From Podarcis pityusensis (Eukaryota): DNA of 64,000 nt. The stretch lies in assembly GCA_964106645.2 (NCBI GenBank), contig OZ067042.1; one strand, given 5' to 3'. The notes under the pieces were generated by a model, which was not told where the DNA came from, searched no databases, and was given only the letters and a program-made list of their open reading frames with translations. The translations under genes and the position numbers were made by a program. Of the stretch, positions 7,397-22,969 are shown one piece after another (the first letter of the stretch is position 1; each line of letters starts with the position of its first letter).

Positions 7397-7994
7397 GTTG
7401 AAAAGTGGCCACAGTCAGGAGGCCAGATGTGTCATAATACTAATGAGCAAGTCTTAGCCTCTGTATTAGCCCTCTACAGTTTTTATAGACAGTGGTTTCC
7501 AAACTTTTTTAAAAGGCCCTGTTCCCTTTTAAAATTAAAATATGCTCAGTTCTGTCCACACTCTAGTCCACCAACCCTGATGCTCATAACCTCTCTGTAT
7601 TCTCCAGGTAGCCCCCGTTTCTTGAAATAAGAAGAAACTGTGGGCAGGTGGCCAGATACAGCTGCATTCCTTGGCTTCTCAGGACCTAGCATGAAAGCTT
7701 CAGACAGGCTTCTATTTTATTCCACCCCAAGCTCCCATCCCTCATTGTACACCATCATTATATTTTTCTTATGGGATGGCACTTTATAAATACTCTCATA
7801 GGTAAACGAATCACTCGGTAGGCAAGTCAGCTCCACACAGGCCTTTAAAAATGGGTTCATCAGGAAGGAAGCACCATATGCCACACCCTAAATGCTGTTG
7901 CTCCTGAGCTTGCTGGTCACCTGAGAGTACCTACCTTTGCAAGCAGTCTAACTTTGCAAGATATTAAGAGGCATACAGGCAGTATACAGTTAAC

Positions 7995-18377: not shown

Positions 18378-18476
18378 GGAGAGCCAGTGTGGTGTGGTGG
18401 TTAAGAGCGGTAGACTCGTAATCTGGTGAACTGGGTTCGCGTCTCCGCTCCTCCACATGCAGCTGCTGAGTGACCT
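18378..18476 (+). mobile_element. Squam3-type SINE, 5' (tRNA-derived) half
   Basis: GAGAGCCAGTGTGGTGTGGTGGTTAAGAGCGG...GGGTTCGCGTCTCCGCTCCTCCACATGCAGCTGCTGAGTGACCT, with A-box-like and B-box-like motifs. It resumes at about 19294. Confidence 0.9.
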
Positions 18477-19293
18477 GAGTGTGACAAAGCGTGTTCTCCC
18501 TAGCAGAGAGCACGTGCTGCGGTTGGGAACAGGCCACCCTCCAGTGACTAGGCAAATTTAGTTGAATCCCGACCATTTAAATGGTTAAACTGGGTTGCTG
18601 GGGTGTTTTGATTGTTGCCAATTCGGAGGAGGGGTCAGAGTCTATATATACAGGGGCCAGACGTTGGCACGGCCTCTTGGCCGTTTTGCATCGGATCACC
18701 CGCCCTCCCTCCCTTGTTTAAGGGGGGTATTGAAGGATTGCTTGACCTTGCTATGCCTGTCATGGGGTCGTTCGCCTTGGTGCGAGGGCCTGGTAGGAAT
18801 TTTGCCATCTGGCTGATTGGCTGGTGCCATTTGGTTTTTGCCTACTGCGTAGCAAATCGTCACAACTTGTAAGGTTGGCGGTTAGGCATTGGTTAAATTG
18901 GTGCTTGGAGGGGTAAGTGCCTACCCCTCCAAATGATGCGAATGGGAATTCCGTTAAAGGAAATCCAGGGGCTTGCCATTCTTTCGTCCTTGTCCCCGGA
19001 GTCGGACTTGGGCCGTGCAAGCCCCACAGGAACATGAGGGTGAGAAGTAATGGTCTGGTGCCCAGCTTTATTTCTCACCCAATACTTGTTTCCCACGCTG
19101 GCTTCCGCTGGTGTCCGGAAGGCCAGCTCTGTCCCTGAGGGCAAGGACAGATAGTCATAACCAATGCCTAAGCAACCACTCACATTTTTGTATTGAATAA
19201 AGTTGTGGCCAAAATTATGCCAAAAACCTTAAACAAAAATTGATGTGTAAAGTGTGAATTATTGGGGGGCTACTGTGACTCAACACGCAAAGA
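18477..19293 (+). mobile_element. LTR-like repeat with promoter, structured RNA domain and polyA signal; probable DIRS/Ngaro (tyrosine-recombinase) retroelement remnant
   Basis: ~815-bp GC/CpG-rich insert that splits a SINE, with no TSD. CCAAT at 18618-18622, TATATATA at 18643-18650, AATAAA(GTTGTGGCC) at 19196-19201, and many hairpins. The family assignment is inferred from the missing TSD and a recalled AATAAAG(T/C)TGTGGCC motif. Confidence 0.7.
18618..18650 (+). promoter_or_regulatory. CCAAT box + GGAGGGG + TATA box of the inserted element
   Basis: CCAATTCGGAGGAGGGGTCAGAGTCTATATATA; LTR-like order upstream of a polyA signal about 550 nt away. Confidence 0.6.
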
Positions 19294-19448
19294 AGTCACA
19301 CTTCTTTGAAATCTCTCAGCCCCACTCACCTCACAGAGTGTTTGTTGTGGGGGAGGAAGGGAAAGGAGAATGTTAGCCGCTTTGAGACTCCTTCGGGTAG
19401 TGATAAAGCGGGATATCAAATCCAAACTCCTCCTCCTCCTCTTCTTCT
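19294..19448 (+). mobile_element. Squam3-type SINE, 3' half with (CTC/CTT)n tail
   Basis: AGTCACACTTCTTTGAAATCTCTCAGCCCCACTCACCTCACAGAGTGTTTGTTGTGGGGGAGGAAGGG...GTTAGCCGCTTTGAGACTCCTTCGGGTAGTGATAAAGCGGGATATCAAATCCAAACTCC; continues the 5' half. Confidence 0.9.
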
Positions 19449-21810: not shown

Positions 21811-22969
21811 GCTTCATTTTGTCTTCCTTTTGAAACATTTAGCTGAACATTTAGCTGGCGGGTAGCCAAAATGATGCCTTCCAGATGTTTTGGATGACAA
21901 CTTCCTTCAGGCCCAGCCAGCACAACCGATGGTCAGGGATGATGGGAGCTGTAGCCCACAACACCTGAAGGCACCACATTGGCATCCCAGAACTAGCCAA
22001 ATGAAACCAGGTAAGAGAGAAGGACAAGACTATTATAGCTTTGAAAGGTAATTTCAGTGGGTCGTTTTTAACCACCCACGCATGACAAATTGGAGCTGCC
22101 AAATTCTCTCTTCTACAATGTAATTCAAAGTAGAGGACCTTTGTCCTTTGCACACAATCACCCTACTGAGCAAACATTAGAAGCAGGTCTCACACAATAA
22201 TCTATAATTATGAGATAGCTTCTGAGTACACACAGCTGTCCCCAACTGCGCCAATGTCAGCCTGAGAGCAAGAGAAAAGAAGAAACTGGTATTGAGCCGG
22301 TAACAGCAAGAGTAACCATTTTTGTTGGTTAAAGAATTATTAGATAACTTCTAGGTTCTTGTATTTACTAGGAAACAACTCTTGGCCACTAACTGTGGGA
22401 CAGGATGCTATCACTGCACAGTCACACAGAGTCACCATGCTACAAAGCTCCAGCACTAGAAATGCTCTGGGATTATGTCCAGAGCAGACTATGTTTCTAA
22501 AGCACAGATGGTATTTTGCAGAGGGCTTTTGTTTGGGGGGTGGAGGTGGAAGAGATAAATAATTGGCCTAATTTATGAGATGTCTGTACAGAACCATTAA
22601 TTTTAAGAGGATTTATAAAGACACTTTAAAAGTGAAATAAAAGAGTTGAAAATAACTTGAACTGTGCAATTAAATCCAACACATGCAGCTCACATGTGCG
22701 TATAGTTTGCATGGTTAGTAGCTGAAGCATTAACTCAGCACTGTACACTTATGTCATAGCCATCATAATTTCACATGAGAGAAAGGGAGGAATGCCACAT
22801 TTAATACAGTAACGGCTTTCTACAGTTTTATAAAGCACTTGTATTAAAAATAATTACTTTATAAAACATCTGCAGCCAGATCACAGTCAATTTTTAAACA
22901 ATGCTTTAAAGCTCAGTGAAAATTATCAATACTAGAACTGCAGAGTTTAATCAGTGTTTTACTCCAGTA

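Follow-up and report, generated by a model that had tools for sequence, protein, structure and literature searches.

The stretch of DNA considered here, which we call the window, comprises 64,000 nucleotides of contig OZ067042.1 from Podarcis pityusensis (assembly GCA_964106645.2). Within it lies a solo A-spacer-B unit of a Ngaro tyrosine-recombinase (YR) retrotransposon, nested in a SINE (Table 1). It had originally been described as an LTR-like retroelement repeat with a promoter and a poly(A) signal. The signals are there, with CCAAT at 18618, a TATA box (TATATATA) at 18643 and AATAAA at 19196, but the repeat is of another type, namely the split direct repeat of a Ngaro element. Transcription would start in repeat A near 18675; among the eight families shown, a TATA-like box occurs in all eight and CCAAT in only four.

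Near-identical copies of the unit are numerous in the 1.5-Gb genome. Among the best 30 genomic loci, a further copy of repeat B (B1, the last 417 query bases) lies directly upstream in 25, while five are solos like the window copy, which represents the downstream (B2) context only and has no coding capacity. B1 and B2 become identical from TGGCGG, at the foot of the closing stem P1, in all 38 distinct sense pairs, exactly in 35 and one base further in three (one antisense row excluded).

The ends of the window copy agree with an AA(A) crossover within a short hairpin at the B/A junction, the junction being seen in full elements and the ends in loci; 68 exact B/A junctions exist in the genome, and the hairpin formed around AAA by the joined ends would be the recombination site. 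The empty form of the host SINE, which we take to belong to the Sauria/Squam1 family, is documented by hundreds of RNA-seq reads per run that link 18476 to 19294 through six other letters. In the window, a short stretch of the neighbouring SINE sequence, in inverted orientation, stands in place of these six letters (18477-18485 and 19292-19293) and supplies the A-rich target.

Table 1. Features of the solo Ngaro unit and its host SINE, in window positions
Feature	Position	Strand	Remarks
Host SINE, left part	18378..18476	+	Resumes at 19294-~19445; Ngaro unit inside
Solo A-spacer-B Ngaro unit	18486..19291	+	806 bp; 99.4-99.9% identity to the 3' A2-spacer-B2 of full elements
Left end, A-tract and GCGTGT	18486..18494	+	With the right end (19283-19291), 6-bp hairpin around AAA
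Repeat A, promoter repeat	18486..18699	+	Query 6-220 found again at the 5' end of 8/8 young full elements inspected
Spacer between A2 and B2, structured	18700..18875	+	Helices 18748-18755/18848-18855 and 18792-18797/18841-18846
Spacer octamer	18859..18866	+	Pairs with 19202-19209 directly after AATAAA; possible only in B2 and solos
Repeat B	18876..19291	+	B1/B2 identity from TGGCGG immediately 5' of P1
Branched RNA domain	18882..19171	+	P1 closing stem, P2, junction helix around P3-P5, then P6, P7
Junction helix enclosing P3-P5	18944-18947/19091-19094	+	
Conserved unpaired bases	18955-18958; 19152-19155	+	TAAA loop of P3; TAGT 5' of the P1 3' strand
P0 3' strand (B1-only helix)	19174..19198	+	Partner is the SGNH ORF end, absent from the window solo copy
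Poly(A) signal AATAAA	19196..19201	+	GU/U-rich sequence downstream

Full-length elements and their classification

Full copies in the genome are organized as A1-gag-RT/RH-YR-SGNH-B1-A2-spacer-B2. The first 215 query bases are present again about 6 kb upstream in 8/8 B1-bearing copies inspected. Furthermore, a search with the ORF that precedes B1 retrieved 20 loci of other families, 15 of which hold both repeats, mostly 99.3-100% identical; the split direct arrangement A1...B1 A2 B2 was found in these 15 SGNH-led loci and in the eight young copies inspected. Most of the 20 loci carry four overlapping ORFs, which in the two copies scanned correspond to a CCCH-finger gag-like protein, a reverse transcriptase, a tyrosine recombinase and a GDSL/SGNH hydrolase. 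The reverse transcriptase matches PF00078 (E 1.5e-12 and 2.8e-11), and RNase H was recognized by eye from its acidic motifs, without a Pfam match. The recombinase, with 283 relatives, matches PF00589 above the cut-off in L094 (E 1.4e-6) and below it in L077, and the SGNH ORF matches Lipase_GDSL/GDSL_2 at or below the cut-off (E 7e-5 to 7e-3), one relative being named SGNH hydrolase. There is no Dam methyltransferase match in the scanned copies, in which ORF2 terminates shortly after RH, and no tRNA gene in a full element. The closest named relatives of these proteins come from Podarcis, Zootoca and Lacerta, and a metagenome scan for other hosts gave one weak match among 122 candidates, without the RNA domain.

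Two other origins were considered and discarded. An LTR or ERV derivation is ruled out by the ends (A-tract/GCGTGT and ACACGC/AA, not TG...CA), by the split repeats and by the recombinase. A Penelope-like tandem or a retrozyme multimer, suggested by B lying directly before A-B, was dropped once A1 and the ORFs had been found.

The architecture is that of the Xenopus element DIRS-53_XT (Ngaro-like, order DIRS), for which the accessible text of its description reports the same A1-ORFs-B1-A2-B2 split repeats, overlapping gag, RT/RH and YR genes, and an SGNH hydrolase ORF without methyltransferase (10.1101/2021.08.05.455354). Repeat B nevertheless measures about 420 bp here and 152 bp there, and a conserved spacer of about 175 bp separates A2 from B2 in the present elements. 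Isolated A-B units also exist in the Ngaro elements of Cafeteria, where they were likened to solo LTRs in the part of the report available (PMC8547959). In contrast to those solos, the unit is here highly structured, and A-internal-B copies are also common, since 30 of the 50 clade-2 loci described below (L177-L226) terminate exactly at the end of B1. Loci ending at B1 and solos represent the two reciprocal recombination products; the excised circles would carry the B/A junction and might reinsert. No permuted element (A-spacer-B-A-ORFs-B) was seen in the four B1-only loci with upstream DNA (L080, L081, L092 and L095).

The full copies nearest to the window copy are non-autonomous, with RT and YR broken. 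In this lineage (L031:2721-9790, L081, L093, L095), one degenerate backbone is joined to terminal modules (A and SGNH-B1-A2-spacer-B2) of different autonomous families, copies of the youngest being 98-99.5% alike. Its SGNH ORF stays open, RT and YR do not, and a TGCA-rich minisatellite of variable length occupies the position of the gag ORF (L031:3973-4537). Some Ngaro units lie within or beside others of opposite strand (L039, L040, L108, L111), the one in L040 inserted into a conserved spacer motif. Clade-2 SGNH matches are strongly concentrated on contig C19, as they might be on a repeat-rich sex chromosome.

A predicted branched RNA domain in repeat B

The original prediction listed a long-range stem enclosing six hairpins, and these stems indeed exist where it placed them (18882-18895/19158-19171, 18905-18915/18922-18932, 18968-18976/19017-19025, 19038-19050/19068-19080, 19097-19127 and 19128-19151); RNAfold recovers the 14-bp closing stem together with all six inner hairpins. 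The shuffle comparison it had called for places the fold beyond chance: the segment 18875-19180 reaches -143.1 kcal/mol (z -6.83), a value attained by none of 100 shuffles, and the wider 533-nt segment 18669-19201 has z -4.62. At 300 nt, none of the 211 non-overlapping tiles of this length in the window is as stable as the domain (-141.3), and the best of them (-138.5) is a MITE-like palindrome. A near-perfect palindrome of about 150 bp, probably a MITE, occupies window ~1613-1765, and pieces related to it lie at 21888 and 42313. Folding is also strong on the minus strand when compared with shuffles of that strand (z -6.94); the plus strand, which had been thought favoured, is the more stable in 22/22 and 26/26 family copies.

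Some details are less constant. The hairpin noted upstream, at 18669-18684, is present in the window but not conserved in other families. That at 18837-18856 holds in part: pairing is 74% over three of its outer pairs, one of which is C-A in 24/41 copies, and the copies are better described by a spacer helix of longer range that includes a compensatory change. P6 and P7 shrink to a single hairpin in most clade-2 copies, the junction helix is well paired in clade 2 and looser in clades 1 and 3, and an alternative P5 extension in the minimum-energy fold of the window copy is not conserved (47.7%). A search by eye for pseudoknot partners of the TAAA loop and of TAGT gave none that covaried. As had been anticipated, the domain has no Rfam family: its best match, SCARNA21, scores 15.1 bits for a gathering threshold of 60, and a scan of six other loci gave one match at E<=1, below threshold.

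Conservation and covariation of the fold

Three clades, about 55-75% alike, have conserved the domain, whose identity to the window copy ranges from 96% down to about 55%. It directly follows the SGNH ORF in 20/20 clade-1 loci, where z ranges from -4.8 to -9.4 (25 shuffles each). Clade 2, with SGNH 42-46% identical, has the domain too, and the poly(A) motif marking its end is in place in 50/50 loci, two of them without an intact 5' P1 motif. Clade 3 was found by motif search. A first alignment comprised 28 of the 48 cluster representatives plus the window copy, with exclusion of six mis-extracted rows and of 14 singletons, regarded either as degraded members of larger families or as near-duplicates; a chimera (L131:3-301) was excluded from a second one. 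All homologues come from one genome and represent few deep lineages.

Pairs were counted on a sequence-only alignment of 22 copies of clades 1 and 3, with the fold taken from one copy. There, 85.0% of the cells are paired, vs 78.4% in the shuffled alignment and 31-49% when the fold is slid. The covariation check that the original prediction had proposed speaks for the fold: double changes occur in 35 of the 87 pairs, vs about 20 +- 3 in a tree-aware null in which columns evolve independently along the tree, starting from the fold-donor copy, and none of 300 null runs reaches 35. The paired percentage of the core is attained by 0/300 and 5/300 runs under two transition biases, the latter being the high one. 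P1 also covaries in clade 3, a clade for which P2 is misaligned. Moreover, a covariance model built from the 22 clade-1/3 copies and run on 38 sequence sources retrieved, all full length and in sense orientation, 25 distinct clade-2 copies (33-65 bits), which are 87.9% paired in an alignment fitted to the model. Pair by pair, a low-power test on 42 copies gives E<0.05 for three of the 121 proposed pairs and for none when all pairs are considered (best E 0.68), and the excess of G-U over A-C in the core is small (94 vs 66).

Altogether, the fold is very probably a selected cis element of Ngaro RNA. The non-autonomous lineage has two extra internal copies of the domain (L031:7196-7481 and 7577-7820), the first of which has its boundary at P1 and stands in place of about 13 codons of the broken SGNH ORF.

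Predicted flanking helices that differ between B1 and B2

On the evidence of complementarity, the predicted structure is larger than originally noted and dependent on context, as the flanks of B1 and B2 differ in what they can pair with. Upstream of B1, the SGNH ORF ends in a sequence complementary to the interval between P1 and AATAAA. In 26 clade-2 copies, this helix (P0) has 23 pairs, is 97% paired and covers the first three bases of AATAAA; double changes affect 5/23 pairs vs 1.2 in the null (reached in 1/300 and 0/300 runs), G-U outnumbers A-C by 22 to 6, and some of the changes alter SGNH codons. In clade 1, to which the window copy belongs, P0 comprises only 11-12 bp and ends about 10 nt before AATAAA.

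In the B2 context, the spacer octamer is paired in 330/336 cells over 42 copies, with one G-U pair, a near-invariance that leaves no covariation to be observed. The two spacer helices of Table 1 are 95.8% and 94.4% paired in the same number of copies, the second with a compensatory U-A to C-G change at 18794:18844 in 10/42. The predicted accessibility of AATAAA in clade 2 is 0.49 in B1 vs 0.78 in B2, and is barely different in clade 1 (0.47 vs 0.54); these values derive from the first 22 rows per group among 79 B1 and 155 B2 rows, with one clade-1 row misfiled.

A proposed signal for 3'-end formation and replication

There is about an even chance, in our judgment, that the fold of repeat B and its spacer constitutes a 3'-end and replication signal of Ngaro. 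Judging from its architecture, the element would have to read through the poly(A) signal of B1, because only the read-through RNA would hold the B/A junction needed for both ends; a repeat-annealing model is cited in PMC6681497. In B1, the end of the SGNH gene would base-pair with the stretch running up to AATAAA and reduce 3' processing; in B2, the partner would be the spacer, and the paired stretch would lie immediately downstream of AATAAA. Both flanks would be held together by the branched core, to which Gag/RT of the element would bind, and the template switch that regenerates B2 from B1 would be fixed at the base of P1. Indeed, the fixed repeat boundary at the P1 foot suggests that template switching or priming occurs there, though such a boundary can also be historical. 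The direction of the switch is uncertain, because in B2, too, the probable cleavage region would be covered, by the helix and by the pairing that follows it.

A precedent exists in HIV-1, whose poly(A) signal is present twice, the upstream copy being kept repressed by an RNA structure, the polyA hairpin (PMC2645353). The repression is only predicted here, and the two systems differ in that HIV-1 has the same local hairpin in both copies, whereas in Ngaro different predicted long-range helices would form in B1 and B2 across a 290-nt domain.

Transcripts and alternative roles

Portions of four raw RNA-seq runs (6-12% of each) were examined. Depth over the domain is at most 16 per direction, vs ~260-520 on the SINE flanks. 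One run (X23) shows a one-strand bias, with a drop in depth after 19231, past the poly(A) signal. On an intact copy, depth is 0-4 in the YR and SGNH bins and up to 28 on B and the spacer, and most mapped reads are less than 99% alike, which indicates that they come from other copies. Twenty reads in the four runs span the spacer into the start of B. The discrete RNA of about 530 nt that had been proposed was not seen in these runs, whose depth is low and shows no pile-up of starts or ends; a discrete RNA in germline is neither shown nor excluded by them. That such an RNA, made from the A2 or solo promoter, would itself carry the function, either as a helper acting in trans or through co-option by the host, is very unlikely, even if the unit possesses a TATA box, a structured spacer and a poly(A) signal, if reads fall on the spacer and B and not on the ORFs, mostly from one strand in X23, and if 2302 exact spacer-B junction motifs exist vs 68 exact B/A junctions (the families covered by the two motifs are not the same). 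Against it stand a depth far below that of the flanking SINE, the lack of defined ends, the origin of most reads in other copies, and a number of solos sufficient for passive read-through. A ribozyme or an IRES, both among the roles first suggested, is most unlikely in spite of the compact fold and its conserved junction bases: nothing in Rfam reaches the gathering score, the hammerhead core motif appears in only 4/55 rows and outside conserved columns, no cleavage ends are seen in the four runs, and downstream of the domain B1, B2 and solos have a poly(A) signal instead of an ORF. It would be more surprising still if the pairing acted in single-stranded cDNA or were a neutral relic. The stable fold of the minus strand and the single-stranded DNA intermediates of DIRS-1, as described in the accessible text of PMC7192593, would fit this, but not the greater stability of the plus strand in 48/48 copies, the preference for G-U over A-C, or the double changes in excess of the null.

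Two further roles deserve somewhat more credit, though each seems doubtful. The core could bind a host export factor or Gag, as a nuclear export or packaging element of the MusD MTE or CTE type, the flanking helices being secondary. The MTE, in the available portion of its description, is a multi-stem RNA of about 400 nt beside the 3' repeat of the MusD retrotransposon (PMC4588558), hence a likeness of size and position, without demonstrated similarity in sequence or in Rfam and with the difference that the domain described here lies in a duplicated repeat. A splice-acceptor-like tract 5' of the SGNH ORF in L094, L031 and L108 means that unspliced RNA would need export, if the putative splicing takes place, and the amplifying non-autonomous lineage has extra copies of the domain; however, neither the context-specific helices nor the fixed boundary would be explained. 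Alternatively, in a reading we hold to be similarly tentative, the RNA would be cut just 3' of P1 in B2, and its paired 3' end would serve as a tRNA-independent primer, with cDNA synthesis beginning at the first base of B. For DIRS-1, PMC7192593 gives the primer as unknown, TGG at the P1 foot is the start of B in 38/38 pairs, the 3' strand of P1 continues in clade 2 into GCCA, complementary to the start of B, and a P1-bounded unit has inserted into an SGNH ORF. By contrast, the same extension needs a bulge in clade 1, RNA ends do not pile up at the P1 foot in the four runs and the 20 reads just mentioned cross the start of B, while active internal copies would be expected to misprime. Furthermore, P1 retains an A-A mismatch in one clade-3 subfamily, so that its 5' strand is not just a copy made on the 3' strand.

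The 3'-end and replication signal that we favour, self-priming, and export or packaging are not mutually exclusive. A possible, rather speculative combination is a 450-nt context switch in the RNA of vertebrate Ngaro retrotransposons, in which B1 would mask its poly(A) site and B2 would be processed at the P1 foot into a tRNA-free primer; if true, this would reveal for the first time how a tyrosine-recombinase retrotransposon primes reverse transcription.

A conserved RNA element in a known superfamily

The locus had been put forward as a candidate for a novel system. What is new is a conserved RNA element, within a transposon superfamily that was already known. The accessible text on DIRS-53_XT makes no mention of RNA structure in repeat B (10.1101/2021.08.05.455354), the words 'hairpin' and 'secondary structure' are absent from the available portions of PMC6681497 and PMC3783388, and literature searches, as far as the texts they gave access to, returned no paper on RNA structure in Ngaro repeats, although a mention in older reviews or in Repbase/Dfam is possible. 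A parallel within the order is the internal complementary region of DIRS-1, a non-coding sequence needed to rebuild the ends (PMC7192593, accessible part), with the difference that DIRS-1 has an inverted-repeat architecture and the present elements split direct repeats.

Priming in the order DIRS is stated as unknown (PMC7192593, same portion), and elements with split repeats would have to get past one poly(A) signal before arriving at the junction from which their ends are rebuilt; the conserved fold makes both questions testable. Named helices, natural compensatory variants and young copies bring short reporter and in-vitro assays within reach. At the level of the host, the many solo units scatter cassettes of promoter, structure and poly(A) signal through lacertid genomes.
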